NCBI GenBank assembly: GCA_023249225.1 | Contig: JAHFDA010000006.1 | Coordinates: forward strand, 1,349-65,348 | Source: a bacterium | Lineage (GTDB): Bacteria > Margulisbacteria > Marinamargulisbacteria > JAHFDA01 | Direction: 5' to 3' | Length of the DNA: 64,000 bases | Shown: positions 33,641 to 62,920 of the stretch, one piece after another | How the letters are laid out: each line of letters starts with the position of its first letter | How positions within the stretch are numbered: position 1 is the stretch's first letter | Translations under genes and position numbers: made by a program | The notes under the pieces: model-generated | Databases searched by the model: none | Seen by the model: the letters and a program-made list of their open reading frames with translations, nothing else | Told to the model about the DNA's origin: nothing

Positions 33641-33668
33641 GCGTGAAGCGTGAAGCGTGAAGCGTGGG
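33641..33668. repeat. Tandem heptamer (GCGTGAA)x3 plus GCGTGGG in the 43-bp spacer between the amidohydrolase stop and the metG start
   Basis: Read directly from the sequence. The same heptamer array recurs at 52728-52755. Confidence 0.8.
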
Positions 33669-34903: not shown

Positions 34904-35725
34904 TTAGTGCTTGAGCCATTTCTTGTTCTGCGGCTTTTTAAGATAATTTGCCGATGTTGTAACCTTTTTTCTGCTTTTTTTCTCCAGTTCCTTGCGGGCG
35001 TTGCCTGCTACCGTGCCACCGGATTTGGCGGCTTGCTGGTTTTCGGTAAAACCTTGGGCGTCAGTGTTGACGGCAATCTCTTTGGTCGAAGCCTCGCCCA
35101 GCATCGAGAAAATGAGCTCCAAATCGCTCATGTGATCCCGCAGGTTTTGGCGTTTGAGACCCTTGAGTTGCTTGTATTCTGATGGTGTTAAGCCAAAGGT
35201 AGCCTGGGATATTTCCGCAGTCAGAATCTCGTACTCTTTAGGGGCCTTCACTCCGCGTTTTTGCCATTCGTTTGTAAGTTCTTCACGGGTAGCGATGCCA
35301 CGAATGCGTTTTTCTATCCAGTCGTCGTCATAGCCCTTGGCTTTGTACAGGGCCCGGGTACGTTTGGTGCCAAGTTCAGGATCTTCGATTTCTTGGATGC
35401 GTTCGTAACCCACCTTGGCTAGCCAGCGCTTAAAGGGTTCGGCTTTGGGGGAGGGGATAGCCTGAATAATACGGAAAATACCCTCGGTATTGGCGCAGCT
35501 CATTTTTTGCGTCCCGCCACCAGTTTCAATATCAAGGGTATGTACAAACTGTACCCACCCTTTGGCCAGCTCTGGATCACGCTGTTTTATGCGCTGGGTA
35601 TATTGTTTGGGGTCGTTTGAATCGGTTAAAGCCAAAACCACATCTTCAACTACAAACCACCATTCGTTGTTATGAACAGTTTTACGGATTTCTTTGGCGC
35701 GGAAGAGGGCGATGTGGGTGGTCAT
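34904..35725 (-). CDS. Bro-N domain protein, DinD (DNA-damage-inducible protein D)-like
   Basis: The N-terminal ...IRKTVHNNEWWFVVEDVVLAL... is a Bro-N/KilA-N-type motif. The start is taken at MTTHIAL, 8 nt downstream of the Fic stop. Confidence 0.55.
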   Translation of the reverse strand: MTTHIALFRAKEIRKTVHNNEWWFVVEDVVLALTDSNDPKQYTQRIKQRDPELAKGWVQFVHTLDIETGGGTQKMSCANTEGIFRIIQAIPSPKAEPFKRWLAKVGYERIQEIEDPELGTKRTRALYKAKGYDDDWIEKRIRGIATREELTNEWQKRGVKAPKEYEILTAEISQATFGLTPSEYKQLKGLKRQNLRDHMSDLELIFSMLGEASTKEIAVNTDAQGFTENQQAAKSGGTVAGNARKELEKKSRKKVTTSANYLKKPQNKKWLKH

Positions 35726-35732
35726 AAGTAAG

Positions 35733-36797
35733 TTATATTTTGTCCCATCCTTGTCGATTTTTCCGTTCCCACCGTGCCGCCCGCCCTGTTCCCAGGCAGC
35801 GAACCTTTTTCTCCTTGCGCATCCCGTTAAGCACCACACGAATCATGTCGTGGGAGACATGCGGACACGCAGCCTCGACATCCGCCAGCGTAAACTGCAG
35901 GGGCAATTCGCGCACCGACTGCTCGACCAAAACGGTTTTGTTTCCGCGTCGGCGTTGAAGTTTGCCAAGTTGCGTTTCGAACTGCTTGTAGGCTTCCACC
36001 AGCGTGACAATAAAAAATTCGGTCCACGGGCGAATGTCATGTTTCCCAAGATGCCAGTTTTTTGAGGAGCGCTGCAGAACATCGTAATACTGCTCCTTGC
36101 GATCCTCGACGATTTTTTCCAGAGCCACATAGCGGCCCACATCGTAGTCATTTTGATAGAGCAGCAGGGTGGTTAGGAGTCGCGAGAGCCTGCCATTGCC
36201 GTCGCGGAACGGATGGATGCATAAAAAATCAAGCACCAGCGCAGCGACCCGTACCACGTCTGGAATCTGCCCATCCTCGGCCAGATCGTGATACCGGCGA
36301 CAGGTTTCCTTAACGAAAGCGGGCGTTTGCCGGGCTGAAACTGGAACAAACCGGGTTTTCCACGAACCATCTGGAAGCCGCTCCTCAATGGTATTGTCCC
36401 GCCGTTTAAAGTGGCCGACAGGCTCGTCGGTCAGCCGGAACATTTCTTTGTGAAAATCCAGGATGCTTTCGGGGGTCAAACGCAAGCGCAGCGGCTTTTG
36501 GTGAATGCGCGACAAAACGGCCTTGTACCCCAACACCTCCGCCTCGGAACGATTGCCAGGTTTGGCGTTTTTAAACAGAGCCTTGATACGCTGCGGCGTT
36601 ACCACCACGCCTTCGATGCGGTTGGATGACTCGGTGCTTTGGATCATGGCGCTGTATCTTAGTGTTTCAAGGGTTTGCGGGGTTTGTTTCTTAAATAAGT
36701 CCTGCCGACCCTTGTAACGGCCTAATTGCTGGAGCAACCCGGCAAAAGAGATGTCGAAATACTGATCCTTTAAATAATGGGGATCAAGGGAAAACAT
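35733..36797 (-). CDS. Fic/Doc (Fido) family protein
   Basis: HPFRDGNGRLSRLL is the canonical Fic motif HPFx[DE]GNGR. A winged-helix-like tail follows it. Confidence 0.85.
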   Translation of the reverse strand: MFSLDPHYLKDQYFDISFAGLLQQLGRYKGRQDLFKKQTPQTLETLRYSAMIQSTESSNRIEGVVVTPQRIKALFKNAKPGNRSEAEVLGYKAVLSRIHQKPLRLRLTPESILDFHKEMFRLTDEPVGHFKRRDNTIEERLPDGSWKTRFVPVSARQTPAFVKETCRRYHDLAEDGQIPDVVRVAALVLDFLCIHPFRDGNGRLSRLLTTLLLYQNDYDVGRYVALEKIVEDRKEQYYDVLQRSSKNWHLGKHDIRPWTEFFIVTLVEAYKQFETQLGKLQRRRGNKTVLVEQSVRELPLQFTLADVEAACPHVSHDMIRVVLNGMRKEKKVRCLGTGRAARWERKNRQGWDKI

Positions 36798-52200: not shown

Positions 52201-52766
52201 GCTTTGTGCAAGCGTTGCGGCAGGTCAAAATGATCAAGGATTCGTCCGACTACAAAATTCACCAGATCATCAATCGATTTTGGACGCTGATAAAAACCGG
52301 GGTTGGCGTCCAAAATAGTGGCGCCCGCCAAGGCCAGCGCATGCATGTTGCCAAGGTGAATGACGCTGTACGGCGTTTCGCGCGGAACCAACACCAGTTT
52401 GCGGCCTTCTTTTAAACACACGTCTGCGGCGCGCTGCAGCAGGTTTTGCGACAGGCCACCTGCGATGCTTCCCAAAGTTCCGACCGAACAAGGCACCACA
52501 ACCATTCCCATGGTTTTAAAACTACCCGAGGCGATGGGGGCGAAAAAATCATTAATCTGATGGCGGATCAACTTTCGCTTGGGCAACCAATTTTTGCCAA
52601 GTTCATAGGTAGCCACTTTTTCGCCGTTTTCTGAAACCACCAAATGCACCTCGATGTTCGCAGGAATTGTCTCGATCAGCCTTTTGGCGTATAGGCTGCC
52701 GCTGGCGCCGGTGATGCCGACGATCAAGCGTGAAGCGTGAAGCGTGAAGCGTGAAGAATTCGTCAT
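52179..52766 (-). CDS. ubiX: Flavin prenyltransferase UbiX. The start is either the ATG at 52766, which is coupled to the menG stop, or the TTG at 52727.
   Basis: RLIVGITGASGSLYAKRLIE is the UbiX N-terminal signature. The heptamer repeat array lies between the two candidate starts. Confidence 0.8.
   Translation of the reverse strand: MTNSSRFTLHASRLIVGITGASGSLYAKRLIETIPANIEVHLVVSENGEKVATYELGKNWLPKRKLIRHQINDFFAPIASGSFKTMGMVVVPCSVGTLGSIAGGLSQNLLQRAADVCLKEGRKLVLVPRETPYSVIHLGNMHALALAGATILDANPGFYQRPKSIDDLVNFVVGRILDHFDLPQRLHKAWKDASH
52728..52755. repeat. Tandem heptamer (GCGTGAA)x4 at the 5' end of ubiX
   Basis: Read directly from the sequence. It is identical to the array at 33641-33661. Confidence 0.8.
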
Positions 52767-53482
52767 GGCTTTGTCCCGATAAAGCAACTCACCACACCAA
52801 AGGTCATGGAGTGGACGTGGCAGTTTGAAAAGCCAGACTGTTCCATCAATTTTAAAAAAGCGGGGCGGGGCGGAAACTTTCCGACCGAGTCGGGCAGATA
52901 CGTGTAGGCCCGGGAGTCGCGGCTGATGAGGGCACCCAGGCGTGGGAGGATTTTGCTGAAATACAGTTTGAATAAGGGGCCAAACACGGGGTGGTGGGTG
53001 TCGTTGAATTCAAGGATGACGGCTTTTCCGCCCGGGTAGAGAACACGGCGCATTTCGCGCAGACCCCGTTCCAGATCGGCCACGTTGCGGATGCCAAAAG
53101 CCACCGATGTCAGGTTAAAACTTTCATCGGCAAAAGGCAGGGCTAGCGTATCGGCCTGGGAGATGTTCAGCTTGTGTTCCAGCGCTGTTCCGGCCACTTT
53201 GGCACGGAAAAGTTCCAGCATGGGCGCCACAAAATCTGTTCCAGTTACCCTTCCGTTGGGACCGAGACGGTGGGCAAACTCGATGGCCAAGTCGCCGGTG
53301 CCACAACACACATCCAGAATCTGCGCGTCTGGTTGTGCCGCAGCCAGCGTGACAGACTTGCGACGCCAGTAACGGTCTACATTTAAACTTAAAAGATGGT
53401 TTAAAAAATCGTAGCGAGGCGCAATACGCGCAAACATGTCCTGTACGTAGGTGGCCTTGTCGACAGCGGAGAAGGTGTTCAA
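52763..53482 (-). CDS. ubiE: Demethylmenaquinone/ubiquinone C-methyltransferase
   Basis: YDFLNHLLSLNVDRYWRR is the UbiE/MenG signature. It also has the SAM-binding DVCCGTGD. Confidence 0.85.
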   Translation of the reverse strand: MNTFSAVDKATYVQDMFARIAPRYDFLNHLLSLNVDRYWRRKSVTLAAAQPDAQILDVCCGTGDLAIEFAHRLGPNGRVTGTDFVAPMLELFRAKVAGTALEHKLNISQADTLALPFADESFNLTSVAFGIRNVADLERGLREMRRVLYPGGKAVILEFNDTHHPVFGPLFKLYFSKILPRLGALISRDSRAYTYLPDSVGKFPPRPAFLKLMEQSGFSNCHVHSMTFGVVSCFIGTKP

Positions 53483-54089: not shown

Positions 54090-54154
54090 GGTGGCTTTAT
54101 TTTAACCCGGATTGTCGACTCTTGGGACTGCCAAACAAGGTTGTTTTAACCCGC

Positions 54155-54228
54155 CACTGTTCATACTTTACTCGTAGGCGGGTTCCCATGTGTAATAGTC
54201 CGCTTCATATGCGTGAATAATCCGGGTT
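54155..54228. repeat. Dispersed repeat copy A (about 74 bp, core GTAATAGTCCGCTTCATATGCGTGAATAATCCGGG)
   Basis: It is near-identical to 60640-60708 and shares its 35-bp core with 62248-62282. Confidence 0.8.
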
Positions 54229-54346
54229 TAAACCAAAGTTCCGTTTGGATGGTCTTAAAGAGGACAGAACAACCCATGAGCATTAGGCGATACAATCGAA
54301 AACGATCAATACTTATTTTTACTGGATTTTTCGAGGAGTTTTATAG

Positions 54347-56749
54347 ATGTCAAGGCTTCTAAATCGGCACACTGCACTACGAATGAAGCCATGGCTTCCA
54401 ATGCTGCTGTTTGCTGGTGCCTGCAACGATTATCACTTGGGCACATATAACACGGTGGAACTTTCGGTCTCGGATGCCAGCTGGGGTCCGACGGAGTGCG
54501 GGGGGACATCCGTATTCAAAGTTTCTGAAGACGGAGCTGCCACGGTCGACGGTCAAGTGTCGGGTTACGTTAAAACCATCGACGGACGCTGGAAGGTGGC
54601 GGGCAGCGATGCCGGCACGGCAGACTTTGAAGGTTGTTTCAGCTCCGATGAATGTTCAACCCACTTTGCCTATACGGCTGGAACTCCCGCAGCCTTTGAA
54701 AAAATCAAACTTACCGTTGAAGTAGGTGATGCTGCTGGCATCAGTACCCTAAGTGACAGCGTTTCAATATACACCGACCAAAAGCCTGCGGGCGAAATGG
54801 TGGCACCTGCGGACGGGAGCCGTTCTATATATGGCGATACCGTGGCCATGATTGGCACTGCCTGGGATACCGAGGACTGTTCGACCCAGCTAAACATGTC
54901 GTTTTATAGCAGCTTGGATGGTTTGCTGGCAGAGGACGTAGCCGTGGATGGCTTTGGACTGGGGCAACTTAACATCAGCAATCTTACGGTCGGCGATCAT
55001 GCACTTTATTTAAAGGTCACGGACAGCATGCAGCAAAGCTCGTTTTCCAGCACCATGACTTTTACTGTATGGCCGCAGGAATCCTGCAACGGCATTGATG
55101 ATGATGGCGATGGCGAAATTCCGGCAGACGAGGTCGACAACGACGGCGATGGCTATCGTTTATGCAACGGAGACTGCAACGATCAGGATGCCACCGTGCA
55201 CCCCAACGCACCGGAGCTATGCGACGACATTGATAACGACTGCGACGGCGAAATCGAAGATCCCGGCCTGGAAGTCTGGGATGGCTGGGACAACGACTGT
55301 GATGGTACGGTGGACCAAATTCCGCTCGAAACCGCAGATGCCAATTATATTGGCGAAGAAGGTGAAGACCACGCCGGGCTGGCGCTGGCATCGGCCGGCG
55401 ACGTGGATGGCGATGGTCTCGGGGACGTTTTGATTGCTGCGCCGCACAACGATTATGCCGGAACGGGCACCGGGGCGCTTTATTTGATACTTGGCAAAAC
55501 GATTGCGGCCTACAGTGGGGCGGTGTCCATTGATCTTTCAATGGCCGATTACATTTTTACTGGAATTGATAGTGAGGTGGCCGGTATTTCTGTAGCCGGT
55601 CTGGGCGACGTCAACGGCGACGGTTATGCAGATTTTCTTGTAGGCGCATATCACAACTATATGACGGACAACTCCGCCGGAGCGGCCTACCTGGTGCCTG
55701 GCCGCGCGGATTTTGGAACAGCGCAACGGCAAACGCTCGCGGATGTTGCGGCAGTGGTTTACTACGGCGAGGCTTCGCAAAACTGGGCGGGCTATTCCGT
55801 TGCAGCTGCGGGTGATGTCAACGCCGATGGGTTCATGGACTATCTGATTGGTGCTCCCGGGGCCTCAAATTCCGCTGGAAGCACGCAGGCTGGCAAGACG
55901 TATTTGCTTTTCGGTTACGAAAGCCCCGAATGCATCCCCGAAGTTTATCTGGCGGATGTTTCGACGGTGTTTGAGGGCGAGAACACGGGTGATGAGAGTG
56001 GCTTTAGCGTTTCCGGCGCAGGTGATACCAATGGCGATGGGTATGGCGACATACTCATTGGAGCTTTTGAAAATGGCGAGGCGGGAGATGGTGCCGGTAA
56101 AACGTATTTGATTCTTGGACGCGAGGATTTTGGCGTCGAAGCATTCAGCCTTGCGAACGCCGATGAAATGTTTCTTGGCGAAACGGCTTGGGACTTCAGC
56201 GCGTATGCGGTTTCCGGAACGGGCGATCTGAACGGCGATGGTCTTACAGACTTTGCCATTGGCGCGCCTTATAACGATGAGTCCTATGACAAGGCAGGCA
56301 AGATCTATGTTGTGCTTGGCAAAACCAGTTTTGGCAGTCACGCAGCCACCTCACTTGCGGCGGCCGATTATGCCTTGCTCGGCACAGAATCCGATGTCCA
56401 CGCCGGTTTATCACTTTCAAGCCTTGGCGATGTGGACCAGGACGGACGCGCGGATTTTGTGGTGGGCGAACCCAAGGCACATGACGAAAATGTCGGTGAA
56501 TCCTACGTGATTATGGGCAATGTACTCACCGAACGTTATTCCATTGGCGACGAGATCATGCTCTGGGATGCCTCTGCCCTGTTCTGGGGCGAGTATCCGG
56601 GTGATTACAGCGGTTATACAGTTGCTGCTGCCGGAGATGTCACCGGAGATGGATATCCAGAACTTTTAATTGGTGCCTACGCCAACGACGAGGGCGGAGA
56701 CTACGGCGCGGGCAAGGCGTATTTGGTGCTGAATTATTTTGGGGAGTGA
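54347..56749 (+). CDS. Lipoprotein with a Cys-rich MopE-like CxDxDxDG metal-binding motif and FG-GAP (integrin-alpha beta-propeller) repeats
   Basis: It has a lipobox (LLFAGAC), CNGIDDDGDGEIPADEVDNDGDGYRLCNGDCNDQD, and repeated GDVNGDGYADFLVGA FG-GAP units. Confidence 0.7.
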   Translation: MSRLLNRHTALRMKPWLPMLLFAGACNDYHLGTYNTVELSVSDASWGPTECGGTSVFKVSEDGAATVDGQVSGYVKTIDGRWKVAGSDAGTADFEGCFSSDECSTHFAYTAGTPAAFEKIKLTVEVGDAAGISTLSDSVSIYTDQKPAGEMVAPADGSRSIYGDTVAMIGTAWDTEDCSTQLNMSFYSSLDGLLAEDVAVDGFGLGQLNISNLTVGDHALYLKVTDSMQQSSFSSTMTFTVWPQESCNGIDDDGDGEIPADEVDNDGDGYRLCNGDCNDQDATVHPNAPELCDDIDNDCDGEIEDPGLEVWDGWDNDCDGTVDQIPLETADANYIGEEGEDHAGLALASAGDVDGDGLGDVLIAAPHNDYAGTGTGALYLILGKTIAAYSGAVSIDLSMADYIFTGIDSEVAGISVAGLGDVNGDGYADFLVGAYHNYMTDNSAGAAYLVPGRADFGTAQRQTLADVAAVVYYGEASQNWAGYSVAAAGDVNADGFMDYLIGAPGASNSAGSTQAGKTYLLFGYESPECIPEVYLADVSTVFEGENTGDESGFSVSGAGDTNGDGYGDILIGAFENGEAGDGAGKTYLILGREDFGVEAFSLANADEMFLGETAWDFSAYAVSGTGDLNGDGLTDFAIGAPYNDESYDKAGKIYVVLGKTSFGSHAATSLAAADYALLGTESDVHAGLSLSSLGDVDQDGRADFVVGEPKAHDENVGESYVIMGNVLTERYSIGDEIMLWDASALFWGEYPGDYSGYTVAAAGDVTGDGYPELLIGAYANDEGGDYGAGKAYLVLNYFGE

Positions 56750-56756
56750 AAACAGA

Positions 56757-59204
56757 ATGATGTCACATCGTAAAATCGCCTTGATTATTCCGCGCCAAAT
56801 TATTTTTGCAACGGCTCTGTTTGTAACGCCTGCCTGCAGCGAGTATCACTTTAGCTATCAAAATTCCGTGCAGATTAAACCCGAAAACGCCGTGCGCGGT
56901 TCCGCAGTTTGTGACGGCAAAGACATGGATAAGGTTCCCGAGGACAGCGCTATAGATTTGCGTGCCGATTTTCATATTCAGGGGAACGTTAGAAGCGCTC
57001 AATGGGTCATGGAAAATGGGGACACCTATGACGCCAGTATTGCCGACTGCGTGGCCGATGAAGATTGCAGTGCTTATTCCGAAACCTCCGTTGAAGCGGC
57101 GGACGGAGGTTTAACTCGTCAAACCGGGATCACGGCCAACGTAAGCACAGATATCGGCATGACCACCGTAAGCGATTCGGTGGGTATTTATACCGACGCC
57201 AAGCCTCAAATTTCAGTGGCTTCACCAGCGGATGGCGACGCCTTTCTTTACGGTGACGACATCAATATGGTGATTGCGGTCAATGATACCGAGGATTGCA
57301 GGGACGACCTGAAAATATCGATTGGCAGCAGCGCCGATGGTGTGCTGGCGCAAGATCTGGCGCCGTCATCGAGCGGGGTACTCACGTATACGCTGTCGTC
57401 TTTAAGTACTGGCGATTACACCCTGATTGTTTATACGACCGATTCGATGGGCCAAATTGCCTCTACGTCCATTGATATTACGGTGATGGCGGTCGAAGAG
57501 TGCAACGGCCTCGATGATGACGGCGACGGGGTCATTCCGGTTGACGAACAAGATTACGATGGCGACGGCTACATGCTGTGCGAGGACGATTGCAACGATC
57601 AAAACGACCATGTGCATCCCGACGCCGACGAAGTTTGCGACGGCATCGACAATGACTGCGATGAAGAGATCGACGAGGATCCCGTGACCTCCGCCGAAGT
57701 ATGGAATGGCATCGACGACGACTGCGATGGCACCATCGACCGCATTCCCTTAAGCACGGCGGATTATATGTACACCGGTCAGGAAGAGAGCGATGGAAGC
57801 GGTTATTTTGTTTCCCCGGCCGGCGACGTGGACGGCGACGGCCTTGGCGATATTTTAATTGGCGCGCCTCTTTGGGCAGGCCACCCGTCCACCGAAACGG
57901 GAATGATTTATTTAATCCTCGGAAAAACCATTGCGGCTTACGGAAGCAGTTTTCTTTCGATTAGTCTTGCGGATGCAGACTACATCTTTGAGGGAGACCA
58001 ATATTCCGAAGGCCTGGGTTATCAGGGCGCCAGCGCGGGCGACGTCAACGGCGACGGTTATGATGATTTTGTGCTGGGCGCGTCTTGTAATGATGTCGTC
58101 GAAGAATGCGAGCCCAGCACCTATCTTGTGCTTGGACGCGCAGACTTTGGCTCGTCCAAAAATATTTCTTTAAGTAACACAGGAGTCCTCTTTTACAATG
58201 ATCTTGAGACGCTTGCAAGCTTTACCTACGCTACCGGAGCCGGGGACATTAATGCCGACGGGTACACGGATCTGATCATCACCGTGCCCTATGCCTATTC
58301 GTTGGATGGTGCCGAAGAAGCCGTGGGCCGCGTGTATTTGCTTTTTGGGAGCGCGGACATTGAGTCAGAATCGGGCCTGTATCTATCCGAAATGGATCTG
58401 GCTTTTGTGGGGGAGCATGGCGACGATGGTATTTATATGGCGGCGGCGGGCGCCGGAGATACCAATGGCGATGGTTATGACGATATCCTGATTGGCTCCA
58501 AATACAATGACGCAGCGGGCTACAGCGCCGGGCAGACGTATTTGATTTTAGGGCGTGAGGCTGGAGATTTTGAAAGTTTTTATTTTTCGCTGGCCGATGC
58601 CGATGAAAAATTCCTTGGTGAAGATGAATACGAGTTTAGTGGCTATGCGGTGGCGGGCAGCGGCGATGTCAATGGCGATGGCCTTTCGGACTTTGTGGTT
58701 GGCGCGCCGCACCACGGGCGCTATGACCGTAACGGCATGACCTATCTCATTTTTGGATCAAATTCTTTTGGCAGCGGTACGGCGCGCAGCCTGGCAACGG
58801 CGGACTACGGTTTTACGGGCGATGCCTACTACGAATATTCCGGCTGGGCGCTGGCGGGTCTTGGAGATGTGGATGCTGATGGTCTTTCGGACTTTGCGAT
58901 TGGCGCGCCGTACGCGCACCTGGCGTCCGACGGCACGTATGAAATGTCGGGGCATACCTACGTGGTCAATGCGGCCATGCTCGCCAGTCATGATCTGCAC
59001 GAAACCATTAACCTTTACTATGACGCCTCGGCGCTGTTTTGGGGCGAGCATTATATGGATCTAAGCGGTTCGTCCGTATCTTCGGCGGGAGATGTCAACG
59101 GCGACGGCTATCCCGATCTTTTAATTGGCGCCTACCAGAGCGAAGGCGGCGGTTTGGAATATTCGGGCAAGACGTATTTGGTGATTAACCGGTTTGGGGA
59201 GTAA
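56757..59204 (+). CDS. Tandem paralog: MopE-motif/FG-GAP repeat lipoprotein
   Basis: It has the same architecture as the gene at 54347-56749 (CNGLDDDGDGVIPVDEQDYDGDGYMLCEDDCNDQ and GDVNGDGY... repeats). The ATG follows a GGGGAG Shine-Dalgarno sequence. Confidence 0.7.
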   Translation: MMSHRKIALIIPRQIIFATALFVTPACSEYHFSYQNSVQIKPENAVRGSAVCDGKDMDKVPEDSAIDLRADFHIQGNVRSAQWVMENGDTYDASIADCVADEDCSAYSETSVEAADGGLTRQTGITANVSTDIGMTTVSDSVGIYTDAKPQISVASPADGDAFLYGDDINMVIAVNDTEDCRDDLKISIGSSADGVLAQDLAPSSSGVLTYTLSSLSTGDYTLIVYTTDSMGQIASTSIDITVMAVEECNGLDDDGDGVIPVDEQDYDGDGYMLCEDDCNDQNDHVHPDADEVCDGIDNDCDEEIDEDPVTSAEVWNGIDDDCDGTIDRIPLSTADYMYTGQEESDGSGYFVSPAGDVDGDGLGDILIGAPLWAGHPSTETGMIYLILGKTIAAYGSSFLSISLADADYIFEGDQYSEGLGYQGASAGDVNGDGYDDFVLGASCNDVVEECEPSTYLVLGRADFGSSKNISLSNTGVLFYNDLETLASFTYATGAGDINADGYTDLIITVPYAYSLDGAEEAVGRVYLLFGSADIESESGLYLSEMDLAFVGEHGDDGIYMAAAGAGDTNGDGYDDILIGSKYNDAAGYSAGQTYLILGREAGDFESFYFSLADADEKFLGEDEYEFSGYAVAGSGDVNGDGLSDFVVGAPHHGRYDRNGMTYLIFGSNSFGSGTARSLATADYGFTGDAYYEYSGWALAGLGDVDADGLSDFAIGAPYAHLASDGTYEMSGHTYVVNAAMLASHDLHETINLYYDASALFWGEHYMDLSGSSVSSAGDVNGDGYPDLLIGAYQSEGGGLEYSGKTYLVINRFGE

Positions 59205-59340
59205 TAGCCCTCTAGCGTAGTGCGGGCTAAAGAAGTCAGAGGCAGGAGTGGCAACGCCTGACCTGTGTCGACGGCACAGGGTGAGCGGCGACAGGTAAAC
59301 ATGTTTAATTATCCTGTACATAAGGGTACAGTATAGTTAT

Positions 59341-59892
59341 ATGCTAAAATCTCATGTTTCGGCTTTGTTACGCAGTGAACAAAGACTGTTTCATGTGCAG
59401 GATTTAGCGGCACTGTGGCAGATGCAAAACCTGAATACCTTACATACCACGCTGTCAAGGTATTGCCGCAAAGGGCTATTGTTTAGGGTTTATCGGGGTT
59501 TGTATAGCAAAGTTCCATGGCAGTACCTGGATGCGCTTGAATTGGGGGCCAAAGCCATACACGGTTTTAACTATCTTAGCTGCGAGTCTGTATTGGTACA
59601 GCATGGTTTAATCAATGCGCAGCCAGCGGTGTTGAGCTTTGTGGCAGAAAAACCCAAAGTCTTTAGCATAGGCACGTATCACTATAGGTGCCGCCAAATG
59701 AGCGCGGCTTTTTTGTTTAATCCCTTAGGAGTTCAAAAACAAGGGCCAATCAAAATTGCTTCGGCAACGCGGGCTTTGGCCGATATGTTTTATTACAACC
59801 CGATGACGCATATCGATGGAAAATACAACCGGCAAAAAGTAAGCGAAATGATGTCTGCGATTGGTTATGCCCAACCAAGGTACAGCGTATGA
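59341..59892 (+). CDS. AbiEi-like antitoxin/transcriptional regulator (type IV TA)
   Basis: It is 183 aa and sits immediately upstream of the AbiEii-like nucleotidyltransferase, overlapping it by 4 nt. The N-terminus looks wHTH-like. Confidence 0.5.
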   Translation: MLKSHVSALLRSEQRLFHVQDLAALWQMQNLNTLHTTLSRYCRKGLLFRVYRGLYSKVPWQYLDALELGAKAIHGFNYLSCESVLVQHGLINAQPAVLSFVAEKPKVFSIGTYHYRCRQMSAAFLFNPLGVQKQGPIKIASATRALADMFYYNPMTHIDGKYNRQKVSEMMSAIGYAQPRYSV

Positions 59893-60629
59893 TATTGCCC
59901 CGTCCAATTGATGCAAAACACAAAGCATGGATGTACCGGGTGCTGGTCGAAATTGCCGACGATAAGCAACTACTTAACATATTGCGTTTTAAAGGCGGCA
60001 CTTGTGCGGCCATGCTGGGATGGCTCGACCGTTTTTCCATCGATTTAGACTTTGATTTTATAGGTGATCATTCAAGCGTGGGAGATGTCAGGTCTAAGCT
60101 GGAGCAGTTGTTTAAAGCGTTAGGGTTGGAGATTAAAGACCGCAGTGACAGTGGTATTCAATATTTTCTAAAGTATGCTGCACCCCAGAACCAACGTAAT
60201 AGTTTAAAAGTAGAGGCCAGCTTTCCGGTGCCGCGATGTAACCAATACCAGAGCATGTATTTTTCGGAAATTGAACGGACACTGTGGTGTCAGAGCCGTG
60301 AGTGCATGTTTGCTAATAAACTGGTGGCGGTATTGGATCGTTGGGCAAAGCACCATTCATTGGCCGGACGCGACATTTATGATATTCATTATTTTTTTAT
60401 CAATGCCGTACCATATTTGGCGACAGTCATTGAGGAGCGGCGCGGTACAGACCTGGTTTCATTTTTTAGCGAACTTCGGGATTTTATTAAAAAAAGATTT
60501 AATTCAGTGGTTATTCAGCAAGATATCAATATGCTGCTGCCACACAAAAAGTTTAAAACGTTTTATAAACACGTGGTACCCGAAACAGTGCGCTTGATCG
60601 ATGAAGAGATGATTCGCTTAAAACGTTAA
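59889..60629 (+). CDS. AbiEii/AbiGii-family nucleotidyltransferase toxin (DUF1814)
   Basis: LRFKGGTCAAMLGWLDRFSIDLDFDF is the characteristic N-terminal NTase motif of the AbiEii family. Confidence 0.7.
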   Translation: MILPRPIDAKHKAWMYRVLVEIADDKQLLNILRFKGGTCAAMLGWLDRFSIDLDFDFIGDHSSVGDVRSKLEQLFKALGLEIKDRSDSGIQYFLKYAAPQNQRNSLKVEASFPVPRCNQYQSMYFSEIERTLWCQSRECMFANKLVAVLDRWAKHHSLAGRDIYDIHYFFINAVPYLATVIEERRGTDLVSFFSELRDFIKKRFNSVVIQQDINMLLPHKKFKTFYKHVVPETVRLIDEEMIRLKR

Positions 60630-60639
60630 CCGCACCGTA

Positions 60640-60708
60640 AGCACTATTCATACTTTACTCGTAGCGGGTTCCCGTGTGTAATAGTCCGCTTCATATGCGT
60701 GAATAATC
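60640..60708. repeat. Dispersed repeat copy B (about 69 bp)
   Basis: TTCATACTTTACTCGTAGCGGGTTCCCGTGTGTAATAGTCCGCTTCATATGCGTGAATAATCCG is near-identical to copy A. Confidence 0.8.
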
Positions 60709-60712
60709 CGTT

Positions 60713-60949
60713 TTACTTTAGCCAATGTTCAATATCGTCCAGGTATTTTTTCCAGGGTAGTACCTTTACCGCGCCGAGCATATACGTGTTTTCAGCCGTG
60801 CAGACCGCATAGGTGGGGACATCTGGTTGATCCGCCGCAAATGAACGTAACCCGGAGAGATGCGCCGAAGTCACATTGGGCGTCCATTTGATTTCAAAAG
60901 CAGCCACCATGCGGTTGCGTTCGCTTTTTTCCCACGCGGGCATACCCAA
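60713..60949 (-). pseudogene. Remnant (C-terminal DUF4143 part only) of an AAA+ ATPase/DUF4143 gene
   Basis: AFEIKWTPNVTSAHLSGLRSFAADQ...YAVCTAENTYMLGAVKVLPWKKYL matches the DUF4143 C-terminus. The N-terminal AAA domain is absent. Confidence 0.4.
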
Positions 60950-61012
60950 GTTATAGCCGAATATTTAAGTTATAGCCAATTTATGCTATAACTATGTATA
61001 ACTTAGTATAGT
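60948..61012. promoter_or_regulatory. Iteron-like repeats: AAGTTATAGCC twice in direct orientation, an inverted GCTATAACT and a partial ATAACTTA, upstream of the ATPase gene
   Basis: Read directly from the sequence. The repeats lie 30-90 bp upstream of the GTG start at 61041 and are candidate operator sites. Confidence 0.3.
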
Positions 61013-61040
61013 CGGACAAATTCCGAAGCGAGGCATTTTC

Positions 61041-62249
61041 GTGGAAAAAGTTAAAAACCCATTTTCCCCTGGAGCTGGATCACCCCCACCCGAACTAGTT
61101 GGGAGAGACGAAATTATTGAAGGAGCGAGGGTTTTGTTTGACCGTGTTAAACATGGGCGTTCTGAAAAAAGTATGATCTTGGTTGGGCTAAGAGGGGTCG
61201 GGAAGACAGTTTTACTCAATGAATTGATGCGCGAAGCCAAGAGGTCTGATTGTCATACGATCATGATTGAAGCTCACGAGGGAAAATCTCTTGCAGCTCT
61301 GTTAACACCGTATCTTCGAACAACCCTTTTTGGTTTGGATCGAATAGCCAATATGAGCGATAAAGCCCGCAGAGGCCTTGCGGTACTTAAAGGGTTTATT
61401 GGAGCGGTGAAGGTTAAGGTTTCAGAAATTGAAATAGGGTTGGATATTGACGCGGAGCAAGGGGTAGCGGATAGCGGAGATCTGGAATCTGATTTGCCAA
61501 ATCTTTTTATTGCGGTGGCAGAGGCCGCACAGGAACGAAATACCGTCATCGTATTACTTCTCGACGAAATTCAATACCTGTCTGAAAAAGAATTGAGTGC
61601 ATTGATCATGGCAATGCATAAAATGCAGCAGCTTCAACTACCATTAATTCTCATTGGGGCAGGGCTCCCAATATTAACTCGCATGGCCGGGGAGTCCAAA
61701 TCATATGCGGAACGTCTTTTTGAATTTCCGGCCATTGGACCTCTTTCAAAATCCGATGCCTATAAGGCATTGGTTGATCCCGTTAAAAATGCAGGAGTAG
61801 AATTTAATAAAAATGCGGTGGATGAGATATTTCGTGTAACAAAAGGGTACCCTTATTTTATTCAAGAGTGGGGATACCAAGCGTGGAATCATGCCGAAGG
61901 AAGCGCGATAGTGTTATCGGATGTCCAGAAGACAACAAAATTAGTAATAGCACGACTTGATGCCAATTTTTTTCGAGTACGTTTCGATCGACTTACACCC
62001 AGTGAAAAAAGATATTTAAGAGCCATGGCACAGCTCGGTCCCGAAGCACATCGTTCGGGAGATATTGCAGAAATGCTAGGTGTCAAGCTAAGTACGGTAG
62101 CGCCAACAAGAGCCAATCTCATTAACAAGGGGATGATTTACAGTCCGACGTACGGGGACATGGCTTTTTCTGTGCCACTTTTTGACGAGTATATGCGGCG
62201 GGCAATGCCCGAGAATGAAGCCGGTCAAAGAAAATCAAAAGGCATGTAA
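61041..62249 (+). CDS. AAA-family ATPase of the Arch_ATPase/DUF234 type
   Basis: The N-terminal NPFSPGAGSPPPELVGRDEII and a Walker A motif LVGLRGVGKT are the hallmark of PF01637-type ATPases. Confidence 0.65.
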   Translation: MEKVKNPFSPGAGSPPPELVGRDEIIEGARVLFDRVKHGRSEKSMILVGLRGVGKTVLLNELMREAKRSDCHTIMIEAHEGKSLAALLTPYLRTTLFGLDRIANMSDKARRGLAVLKGFIGAVKVKVSEIEIGLDIDAEQGVADSGDLESDLPNLFIAVAEAAQERNTVIVLLLDEIQYLSEKELSALIMAMHKMQQLQLPLILIGAGLPILTRMAGESKSYAERLFEFPAIGPLSKSDAYKALVDPVKNAGVEFNKNAVDEIFRVTKGYPYFIQEWGYQAWNHAEGSAIVLSDVQKTTKLVIARLDANFFRVRFDRLTPSEKRYLRAMAQLGPEAHRSGDIAEMLGVKLSTVAPTRANLINKGMIYSPTYGDMAFSVPLFDEYMRRAMPENEAGQRKSKGM

Positions 62250-62282
62250 TAGTCCGCTTCATATGCGTGAATAATCCGGGTT
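62248..62282. repeat. Dispersed repeat copy C (35-bp core) flanked by a GGCATG/CATGCC inverted pair, starting at the ATPase stop codon
   Basis: GTAATAGTCCGCTTCATATGCGTGAATAATCCGGG is identical to the core of copies A and B. Confidence 0.8.
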
Positions 62283-62578
62283 AAGCATGCCATAAAAAGG
62301 GAGCTGCCCGATACCTTTAATTGCGGGTTTTCAAGTGCCCGGGGACAGTGAAGGCTCTTGCTGGTACCGGGGCTGCAATTTTAAGAAATTCTGGGAGCGC
62401 CAAAAAAGTCCTGATTCATTATTGGGCTTGGCGGGCGCAATCCCCCTTCTGCCCGCCTTGAACCGGAGTGGAAAGGACAATTTTTCCTTCAACTGCGTTC
62501 AGGATGGTGAGCTTGTCGAATCCACAACGTCGTTTTGAGGAGGTATGATAAAACAGCGAAGTTGGTTCCCACCACACA

Positions 62579-62920
62579 TCACTTTCTATTTTTTGAAGCC
62601 TTAGCTTGTTTATTAAAGTTGAGCGCCACTTCGATCCAATACTCAAAATCTTTTTGCTGCATGAGACCATTTGGACTCACGAGCAGGAACCCCCGTACTT
62701 TTCTTTTCATCATATCCATTTCGTGACAGCCCTTTTTCTCAAGCGCCTTTTCGTGCATTGCGGGATCCAAGCGAACCATGAGCTCGTCCTTGATAATTCC
62801 CACGCACATTTTGCCGTTTACCATAAACGTCAACCCGCCCATCATTTTCTTTTCTTCGACGCGTCGCACTTTCGAAAATACATTCCTAAGTCGATTTGCT
62901 AATTTTTCGTCGTAGGCCAT
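62579..62920 (-). CDS. TfoX N-terminal domain protein
   Basis: MAYDEKLANRLRNVF...MMGGLTFMVNGKMCVGI matches the TfoX_N family pattern. Confidence 0.6.
   Translation of the reverse strand: MAYDEKLANRLRNVFSKVRRVEEKKMMGGLTFMVNGKMCVGIIKDELMVRLDPAMHEKALEKKGCHEMDMMKRKVRGFLLVSPNGLMQQKDFEYWIEVALNFNKQAKASKNRK

Follow-up and report, generated by a model that had tools for sequence, protein, structure and literature searches.

Three copies of a direct repeat at the ends of two compositionally foreign gene blocks in a Marinamargulisbacteria contig

Three direct copies of a repeat bound two adjacent gene blocks in a 64-kb stretch of bacterial DNA (here called the window, meaning the whole stretch that was analyzed). 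We consider it somewhat probable that the copies represent one local sequence of ~90 bp, duplicated twice by two successive foreign insertions at one site, and that this site lies at the edge of a horizontally acquired region beside a menaquinone gene cluster. From copy 1 rightward, the DNA is foreign in composition throughout, and the ATPase unit of the second block is demonstrably mobile in other genomes, where it is often bracketed by host-derived direct repeats. The insertions at this site, their order, the circular intermediate and the crossover mechanism are inferred from structure.

Repeat copies and gene blocks

Features of the region are as follows (window coordinates).

54095..54240, no strand: imperfect ~140-nt palindrome enclosing copy 1 (−45.4 kcal/mol; z −3.7 on the + strand, −3.4 on the − strand)
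54141..54245, + strand: repeat copy 1, the longest version (left arm, core at 54191-54224, GGGTT, short tail)
54347-56749 and 56739-59204, + strand: block 1 part 1, two tandem FG-GAP/MopE-motif surface proteins (Pfam, composition)
59341-59892, + strand: AbiEi antitoxin (block 1 part 2, 59341..60629)
59889-60629, + strand: AbiEii toxin (block 1 part 2)
60623..60730, + strand: repeat copy 2 (core at 60675-60710, identical to copy 1)
60713..60949, − strand: remnant of an AAA_14-DUF4143 ATPase gene, C-terminal ~76 codons (phmmer)
60945..61040, + strand: conserved leader of the ATPase unit (convergent half-site arrays, two GTTAT and then two ATAAC)
61041..62249, + strand: Orc1/Cdc6-like AAA+ ATPase with a winged-helix C-terminal part (AAA_16/AAA_22), intact gene
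62245..62282, + strand: repeat copy 3 (core plus GGGTT, 38 nt identical to copy 1)

The 35-nt core GTAATAGTCCGCTTCATATGCGTGAATAATCCGGG was found with 0 mismatches at 54192-54226 and 62246-62280, and at 60678-60712 with mismatches at its final 2 bases only; 34 nt are identical in all three copies. All 3/3 core copies lie on the + strand (chance expectation, 0 in 100 shuffles), and relaxed blastn with each copy as query returned no fourth copy in the whole 64-kb window. The repeat is therefore real, as the initial annotation had it, with an extent somewhat larger than the ~70 bp given there. Homology between copies 1 and 2 extends over ~105 nt (54141-54245 versus 60623-60730; 86/110 columns identical), including a 36-nt perfect run (54189-54224/60675-60710), whereas copy 3 shares 38 identical nt with copy 1 (54191-54228/62245-62282) and 34 nt with copy 2. 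The left arm is common to copies 1 and 2, which differ there by three substitutions or 1-nt indels and one 8-nt indel, and is lacking from copy 3; in copies 1 and 3, though not in copy 2, the core is followed by GGGTT. The mismatches that separate copies 1 and 2 are unevenly spread (36-nt perfect run within 86/110; permutation, p = 0.0004), as expected from a crossover inside the identical core of two diverged versions. An independent ENA assembly contains the identical arrangement of repeats and blocks, and Logan contigs (k = 31) break within copies 1 and 2, as a true repeat would cause.

Copy 1 lies in the divergent intergenic region between a DUF309-like gene (− strand) and FG-GAP gene 1 (+ strand) and is the point at which DNA composition changes from typical to atypical. 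Copy 2 takes in the AbiEii stop codon (60627-60629) at its left edge and directly adjoins the stop codon of the DUF4143 remnant at its right edge, and copy 3 supplies the stop codon of the ATPase gene plus two bases of the last codon, which bears out the placement of repeats at block ends. Downstream of copy 3 is unrelated DNA, followed by the 3′ end of a TfoX_N gene (62579-62920, − strand). The GGCATG/CATGCC pair noted earlier does flank copy 3 (62240-62245 and 62286-62291), with a left arm that is part of the ATPase gene end and not of the repeat.

Against window positions 1-44000, tetranucleotide correlation was high for the left core (0.94) and lower for AbiE (0.71), the right flank (0.67), the FG-GAP genes (0.62) and block 2 (0.56); size-matched native chunks reached 0.80-0.93 (minima, 0.67-0.89). 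In block 1, the two FG-GAP proteins (Pfam E values, 1e-44 and 1e-47; 46% mutual identity; tetranucleotide usage atypical of the window) had been called lipoproteins; the FG-GAP assignment held, and the lipoboxes are non-canonical. The AbiEi/AbiEii pair was confirmed. Block 1 contains no mobility gene and is heterogeneous in GC content (FG-GAP, 0.54; AbiE, 0.44), so that its parts may have arrived separately.

Block 2 comprises a discrete unit of ~1.3 kb, made of the half-site leader and the Orc1/Cdc6-like AAA+ ATPase gene, preceded by the DUF4143 remnant, which is cut off at the left end of the leader. The 78-aa remnant had no Pfam match, even at E ≤ 10; exhaustive phmmer aligned it with ~65 residues at the very C terminus of AAA_14-DUF4143 proteins, so that its first identification was right in substance. 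No further pieces of its gene were found in the window. The "Arch-type ATPase" of the initial annotation is an AAA_16 protein whose predicted fold is closest to Cdc6/Orc1 and to the archaeal ATPases PABY2304 and SSO1545. Given the stop codons at the copies, the foreign blocks and the mobility of block 2, the repeats are best read as recombination or insertion junctions. To that extent the proposal of recombination sites of a mobile-cassette system stands; its attC, REP and MITE variants are not supported. Other small accessory insertions in this window are without flanking repeats.

Folding and searches at the repeat

No integrase, transposase or resolvase Pfam domain was present in the ~45 window ORFs examined or in the ENA gene list for ~6 kb past the window end. 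ARAGORN predicted 0 tRNA/tmRNA genes, and Rfam gave 0 matches at the repeat site at the gathering threshold and none of relevance with the cutoff relaxed to E ≤ 10. The palindrome around copy 1 has outer arms at 54100-54114 (TTTTAACCCGGATT) and 54218-54231 (AATCCGGGTTTAAA) and an inner hairpin (AACCCGCC/GGCGGGTT). Within the core, inverted pairing is limited to TTCAT/GTGAA (4-5 bp), and TTCA-N6-TGAA forms a minimal inverted pair with a 6-nt spacer.

Were the copies attC sites of an integron cluster without integrase, each block would be a cassette. The repeats do follow the 3′ ends of AbiEii and the ATPase gene, and GTTAAGC after copy 3 fits GTTRRRY, but a regex scan of both strands for RYYYAAC...GTTRRRY (inverted pair, 50-140 nt apart) gave four candidates per strand in 64 kb, none overlapping any copy. 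The suggested folding check yielded no hairpin common to the three copies: for copy 2, the fold is no better than in shuffled controls (z −1.7 and +0.4), at copy 3 the stem draws on flanking bases outside the repeat, and the copies show no covariation. No intI was found among the ORFs and genes examined, block 1 spans 6.4 kb with four genes, and an opposite-strand gene fragment lies in block 2. This reading is effectively refuted already, and we give it next to no probability. Integron cassettes resemble the present arrangement in being compact units that end at a gene stop codon, with a repeat after gene 3′ ends; they differ in their attC boxes, hairpin and integrase, none of which was found here. 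The palindromic array of the ATPase unit is unlike attC as well, being upstream of the gene with half-sites TTATA/TATAA or TCTAG/CTAGA rather than GTTRRRY.

It is very improbable that the repeat is a reused functional cis element or small RNA (a bidirectional terminator or 3′-UTR element) with a core under selection. Perfect core conservation next to diverging arms, the exact fit of copy 2 into the spacer of two convergent stop codons and the good folding of the copy 1 region would agree with it. Against it, a terminator scan detected no stem plus T-run site in any of the three copies, there was no Rfam match, no fold is common to the three, and copy 1 occupies a divergent promoter region rather than the 3′ side of a gene. 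No GTDB representative is closely related (best UbiE identity, 50%); the one relative found, too distant to serve as an empty-site comparison, has a DUF309-like gene of 63% identity with no such element beside it, and thyA starts 5 nt away.

A dispersed family that existed beforehand (REP/MITE-like, or the 3′ flank of multi-copy DUF4143 genes) might instead have supplied portable homology, so that the copies were not made by insertion. Copy 2 is contiguous with the 3′ end of the DUF4143 remnant, and the right flank of copy 1 bears a faint likeness to the last five codons of the remnant (12/18 nt, 3-nt gap), which hints that the repeat may be a conserved 3′ flank of DUF4143 paralogues, not duplicated in place. 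The strong palindrome around copy 1 and a sister-sample contig on which an ATPase homologue lies close to an intact DUF4143 gene point the same way, and one Logan contig (L001) ends at a k-mer starting on a SNP in copy 2, compatible with a further variant or copy in that sample. However, there are just three copies in 64 kb, all in 8 kb and in one orientation, and the left arm of the palindrome is missing from copies 2 and 3. Searches with exact core words of 20-31 nt returned nothing from 185,579 species genomes, 241 M metagenome records or IMG/VR, the region had no match in plasmids or phages, and no similarity was seen in the DNA 3′ of a DUF4143 gene of 45% identity. We regard this origin as unlikely. 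Within the window, the copies do not look like REP elements, the core not being a palindrome and the copies being clustered in 8 kb with 0 in the other 56 kb, nor like MITEs, terminal inverted arms occurring at copy 1 only (54100-54114/54218-54231).

Mobility of the ATPase unit

More than 8,000 homologues of the ATPase were found at 65-78% identity across phyla, with hosts including Omnitrophica, Elusimicrobia, Saganbacteria, Legionella and Desulfuromonadaceae, as well as plasmids. Between paired loci with 85-93% nucleotide-identical ATPase genes in unrelated contexts, homology ends at −85 to −122 before the start codon and at −25 to +42 around the stop codon; one Logan contig of the unit spans just −107 to +38. 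Comparison of 1 kb upstream with 1 kb downstream of the ATPase gene gave significant direct repeats at 22/66 metagenomic loci and inverted repeats at 0/66. Controls gave 2/119 overall (1/78 around UbiE, 1/41 for windows shifted by 3.5 kb in ATPase loci), and the excess was significant (Fisher, p = 1.5e-9; 1.3e-6 after dereplication to 15 independent events).

These repeats are locus-specific host DNA of 23-190+ nt. At one locus (L135), the unit has a 5′ fragment of a bioF-like gene on its upstream side and the intact gene downstream; at another (L161), the terminal 66 nt of a 791-aa gene recur after the unit. The unit thus shows the pattern of an insertion-junction duplication, with recipient-derived repeats that vary by locus and constant unit ends in unrelated contexts. 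Copies 2 and 3 of the window, at −364 to −331 and −4 to +29 relative to the ATPase gene, lie within the positional range of the family, in which variable extra DNA often separates the flanking repeat from the unit. No flanking repeat was found at two thirds of the ATPase loci or on six finished plasmids, and an over-long identical core inside the flanking repeats is significant in few loci.

It is conceivable, though doubtful, that the ATPase unit is a new kind of mobile element without transposase or recombinase, which crosses phyla and duplicates 23 to >190 bp of host DNA, with copies 2 and 3 as its footprint. Such an element might use an origin-like or initiator-driven insertion step or a circular intermediate. 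Archaeal oriC-orc1/cdc6 modules likewise encode an Orc1/Cdc6-like AAA+ protein with a winged helix, and archaeal origins have inverted origin-recognition boxes just upstream of the initiator gene. The leader is oriC-like in its convergent short-repeat arrays, AT-rich centre and position directly upstream, its half-sites having the same ~10-nt phasing as at homologous loci. The likeness is one of fold and layout only (best PDB match, 17% identity; TM, ~0.45; model pLDDT, 69), and the hosts are bacterial; the half-site array may simply be an autoregulatory operator.

Two proposed insertions at one site

In the first step of the two-insertion reading that we favor, block 1 (the two FG-GAP genes and AbiEi/AbiEii) would have entered, leaving arm, core and GGGTT on both sides. 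A second DNA would then have entered the right-hand copy via a crossover inside the 34-nt core, bringing the 1.3-kb leader and ATPase unit with an attached 232-nt DUF4143 scrap from an earlier insertion site. This order accounts for GGGTT in copies 1 and 3 and not 2, for the left arm in copies 1 and 2 and not 3, and for three gene ends at the copies; the distribution of GGGTT and left arm fits two nested events with zero extra assumptions. Most likely, a circularized DNA that bore a version of the site integrated through one crossover in the identical core (insertion-duplication); the crossover could be either homologous or catalyzed by a recombinase encoded elsewhere. A widely staggered break, filled in, could lead to the same structure. 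Against the two-insertion reading, neither an empty site nor a circular junction was seen, and a double insertion into ~35 nt would call for an explanation, either a tract of shared homology or an enzyme specific for the site; no such factor was identified.

Site-specific integration would make the copies att sites (attL, hybrid and attR) of two tandemly accreted islets, with the 34-nt core as the crossover region and the recombinase lost or elsewhere. The identical core with diverged arms, one site used twice, the direct orientation of all copies at block ends and TTCA-N6-TGAA with its 6-nt spacer are as such sites would have them, and tandem att-bounded islands share with this locus the three direct repeats, two adjacent foreign blocks, identical core and reused site. 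Such islands usually depend on tyrosine recombinases and lie at tRNA/tmRNA genes or gene 3′ ends. Here, identical-core direct repeats lie at the ends of foreign blocks; no adjoining recombinase was found in the window ORFs examined or in the next ~6 kb, and the target is not a tRNA/tmRNA gene or the conserved end of a gene. Moreover, the left arm common to copies 1 and 2 is unlike a simple tandem attL/attP-like/attR series of one element type, and the ATPase unit is bracketed elsewhere by unrelated repeats that differ with each host genome, which implies that no att site travels with it. Att sites are accordingly a rather improbable explanation.

Target-site duplications of transposons and casposons also involve duplicated host sequence, with an intact and a fragmentary host gene as at L135 and L161. 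In prokaryotes, the known ones are short and of fixed length (2-15 bp), whereas the repeats of the ATPase unit vary from 23 to >190 bp, and the unit has neither a transposase nor terminal inverted repeats.

Campbell-type insertion-duplication is exemplified by suicide-plasmid integration and by targeted insertion of IS26 translocatable units beside a resident IS26. It differs from the present case in that no circular form was seen, with no IS and no plasmid backbone, and for the ATPase unit the circle would have had to gain a copy of each new host's sequence. As here, it yields direct repeats of any length and sequence flanking the insert, with the crossover in the longest identical stretch; the 34-36-nt identical core with diverged arms in the window and the 23-190-nt locus-specific repeats around ATPase units elsewhere both match it.

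Three repeat copies and the genes that they border

A 35-nt core occurs three times in the window, always on the + strand (starts at 54192, at 60678 with two terminal mismatches, and at 62246), with no match expected by chance. The dispersed three-copy repeat reported in the initial annotation was thus borne out, and a relaxed blastn search of the 64 kb yielded no further copy. Copies 1 and 2 are homologous over 54141 to 54245 and 60623 to 60730 (86 of 110 columns identical, including a 36-nt perfect run); the repeat is therefore real, but longer than the ~70 bp first ascribed to these two copies. Copy 3 matches copy 1 over 38 identical nt (62245 to 62282, equal to 54191 to 54228) and copy 2 over 34 nt. 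The left arm is common to copies 1 and 2 and absent in copy 3, GGGTT follows the core in copies 1 and 3 and is absent in copy 2, and mismatches between copies 1 and 2 spare the core (p = 0.0004).

The three-copy arrangement was recovered in an independent ENA assembly, and two Logan contigs (k = 31) end within copies 1 and 2, precisely at the onset of shared k-mers. One Logan contig (L001) was 99.98% identical to the window over 4,473 nt, its single difference being a G to A within copy 2 (L001 position 4444, window 60664); it terminates at the k-mer beginning on that site, and the difference is either a strain variant or an additional copy in that sample.

Features around and between the copies
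Left of copy 1, minus strand: futalosine/menaquinone cluster (radical-SAM MqnC/E-like, UbiA, UbiX, UbiE, glutaredoxin, DUF309-like)
54141-54245, + strand: copy 1
Between copies 1 and 2 (block 1): two FG-GAP/MopE proteins (46% identity to one another), then AbiEi/AbiEii
60623-60730, + strand: copy 2
Between copies 2 and 3 (block 2), 60713-60949, minus strand: 78-aa ORF, DUF4143 remnant
Block 2, 60945-61040: half-site array
Block 2, 61041-62249, + strand: 402-aa AAA_16 ATPase
62245-62282, + strand: copy 3
Right of copy 3: TfoX_N, then SRPBCC protein
Past the window end (ENA gene list): NYN, HTH_3, and Fic genes

The 78-aa ORF had no Pfam match and aligns with the last ~65 residues of AAA_14-DUF4143 proteins; no second DUF4143 fragment was found in the window. 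Copy 2 includes the AbiEii stop codon at its left edge and is adjoined at its right edge by the stop codon of the DUF4143 remnant, and the last codon and stop codon of the ATPase lie within copy 3. With the ends of three genes adjoining copies, the proposal that the repeats mark the ends of gene blocks holds.

Candidate identities of the repeat

Direct repeats that border foreign DNA are well known as a mark of insertion. The cassette idea of the initial annotation stands insofar as foreign blocks were spliced in at the repeats, but the attC, REP, and MITE mechanisms put forward for it fail their tests. No attC boxes were present near the copies; folding gave no hairpin common to the three copies, attC-like or otherwise, and no covariation; and neither the ~45 open reading frames examined nor the ENA gene list beyond the window end held an integrase or transposase domain, leaving no enzyme at this locus to account for the repeats. 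Against a REP or MITE reading, a strong palindrome is confined to copy 1. A terminator scan detected no stem plus T-run within any copy. Exact core words were absent from species-representative genomes and JGI metagenomes (31-mer, 0 matches) and from IMG/VR (two 20-mers, 0 matches), in scans that demand exact identity and that diverged copies would escape, and the 151-nt copy 1 region had no blastn match among plasmids and phages.

No tRNA or tmRNA (ARAGORN) or Rfam family (searched at the gathering threshold across the 64 kb and at E ≤ 10 near copy 1) was detected at any copy. A small structured RNA gene that served as integration target and whose 3′ end would be copy 1 was considered and rejected, given the lack of a family match, the absence of the element in the sole relative found, and the equal folding of both strands, which is expected of a DNA palindrome. 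A coding role was also rejected; open frames occur on both strands, none of them consistent across copies. An imperfect palindrome of ~140 nt (54095 to 54240; −45 kcal/mol, z = −3.7) encloses copy 1, and the palindrome's left arm (54100 to 54114) is an inverted 13- to 14-nt copy of the repeat's own right end and is missing in copies 2 and 3. The palindrome may make the site fragile and so attract insertions.

Neither an empty site nor a circle was seen in the public sequences compared, among which the nearest relative is distant. A search for related loci with UbiE returned nothing above 50% identity. The DUF309-like neighbor had one relative at 63% identity in a different context (L085, ENA ERZ27280176, positions 3 to 1005), where a divergent thymidylate synthase gene (thyA) lies 5 nt away and the FG-GAP genes, the TfoX genes, and any repeat-like element are absent. 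A 1,192-nt contig (ENA ERZ27296333) encodes the same DUF309-like protein as the window, with a divergent neighbor starting 425 nt away versus 402 nt, which points to a 23-nt strain difference (not a multiple of 3) around copy 1.

We keep alive one further explanation, in which the repeat would be a conserved 3′ flank of DUF4143 paralogues serving as portable homology. A faint resemblance links the right flank of copy 1 to the final codons of the DUF4143 remnant. In locus L169, the sequence 3′ of a DUF4143 gene with 45% identity has no similarity to the repeat.

The ATPase unit and its flanking duplications

One of the two inserts belongs to a family of single-gene units that is very large, strongly conserved, and spread across phyla; each unit is a leader plus an Orc1/Cdc6-like AAA+ ATPase gene (~1.3 kb). 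More than 8,000 homologues at 65 to 78% identity occur in very distant phyla, and also on plasmids, usually solitary among toxin-antitoxin, restriction, and other accessory genes. The AlphaFold model (pLDDT, 69) was closest to Cdc6/Orc1, the archaeal ATPases PABY2304 and SSO1545, and RuvB. In the ~95 nt upstream of the start codon, 5-nt half-sites spaced at 10 nt form convergent arrays (TTATA then TATAA or, in another subgroup, TCTAG then CTAGA); by a strict rule such arrays were present in 35 of 79 leaders and in 2 of 79 shuffled ones.

The ATPase block is a discrete mobile unit. Between pairs of loci with 85 to 93% nucleotide-identical ATPase genes and unrelated surroundings, similarity stops at −85 to −122 on the left and at −25 to +42 around the stop codon; one Logan contig consists of the unit and nothing else; and in the window the DUF4143 remnant stops where the ATPase leader starts. 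No conserved small ORF or common flank travels with the unit across loci, except in groups from related hosts. In the window and in locus L161 the stop codon is furnished by the flanking repeat, so that, on its right side, the mobile unit seems to stop inside the final codons of the gene. The C-terminal tail after ..RAMPEF varies in length and sequence among homologues. In seven metagenomic loci (L108, L111, L116, L117, L126, L148, and L150) a gene ending ..LLTGRIRL*, which we take to be the usual C terminus of type I restriction HsdS subunits, directly precedes the unit, and this suggests a preferred neighborhood in restriction loci.

Where each side of the ATPase gene had 300 nt or more of sequence, a significant direct repeat between 1 kb upstream and 1 kb downstream was found in 22 of 66 loci, and an inverted one in 0 of 66. 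Controls gave one marginal direct match in 78 loci around UbiE and 1 of 41 for windows moved 3.5 kb within ATPase loci (Fisher p = 1.5e-9, or 1.3e-6 for 15 independent events). The flanking repeats are host DNA and differ at each locus: a 5′ fragment of a bioF-like gene lies upstream of the unit and the intact gene downstream (L135), or the unit is followed by a second copy of the final 66 nt of a 791-aa gene (L161). In minimal cases the inner edges cluster at the unit ends (−84 to −111 and −4 to +32), and as much as ~400 nt of unrelated DNA may separate repeat and unit. Copies 2 and 3 of the window (−364 to −331 and −4 to +29 relative to the ATPase gene) are a typical case, with the DUF4143 remnant as intervening DNA. 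Six finished plasmids carried no flanking repeats around the ATPase gene. Two loci, L121 and L122, were 99% identical up to +165, inside the right-hand flanking repeat, and then diverged, indicating that different partners were joined within the repeat. L122 (5,832 nt) was also the sole contig with a terminal overlap (127 nt) when contig ends were tested for circularity, the overlap reflecting either a circular molecule of 5.7 kb or a repeat in the assembly.

The family now has defined ends and a statistically robust tie to long host-derived duplications; together with the origin-like leader and the frequency of these duplications, this makes the unit a more notable result than the locus, which is itself a moderately interesting decayed variable region. 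An incomplete literature search returned no published account of the unit, nor of the long duplications of variable length that flank it. If the unit moves alone or with a simple helper, it would belong to a class of mobile elements missed by transposase- or integrase-based detection, and would explain some of the solitary "ATP-binding protein" genes in defense and accessory islands. If it is a cassette that is only shuffled passively, the locus amounts to an ordinary variable region in decay.

Proposed history of the locus

All DNA right of copy 1 had a tetranucleotide correlation of 0.56 to 0.71 with the first 44 kb (size-matched native chunks, 0.80 to 0.93), and the 10 kb left of copy 1 were typical (0.94), which places the border of an acquired region at copy 1 and extends that region beyond copy 3. 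The composition of block 1 is mixed, and its origin may be composite.

A two-step history can be proposed from a starting state a-[arm-core-GGGTT]-B′. Block 1 would have entered first, leaving arm-core-GGGTT on either side, after which the DUF4143 remnant and the ATPase unit would have entered the right-hand copy via the core. Copy 1 should then read arm, core, GGGTT; copy 2 arm, core, then remnant; and copy 3 core, GGGTT, B′, and the observed copies match. The avoidance of the core by copy 1/copy 2 mismatches favors, on this sequence pattern, a crossover between two diverged versions of the site within an identical stretch over plain fill-in followed by uniform decay; such a crossover might proceed by single-crossover integration of circular DNA or through a site-specific enzyme. 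The core-sparing signature is found in some family loci only, and when flanking repeats across the family were tested for an over-long identical core, significance was reached in a few loci only, so that this test fails to separate crossover from staggered-break fill-in.

The futalosine/menaquinone cluster is interrupted by a Bro-N/Fic gene pair (34904 to 36797) and an antitoxin/ParE pair (~49500 to 50040), neither flanked by direct repeats in the window. A tandem heptamer, (GCGTGAA)n, occurs twice within the menaquinone-related region, between the metG-like and amidohydrolase genes (33641 to 33666) and at the junction of the UbiE end and the UbiX start (52728 to 52767), with 26 nt identical at both sites.
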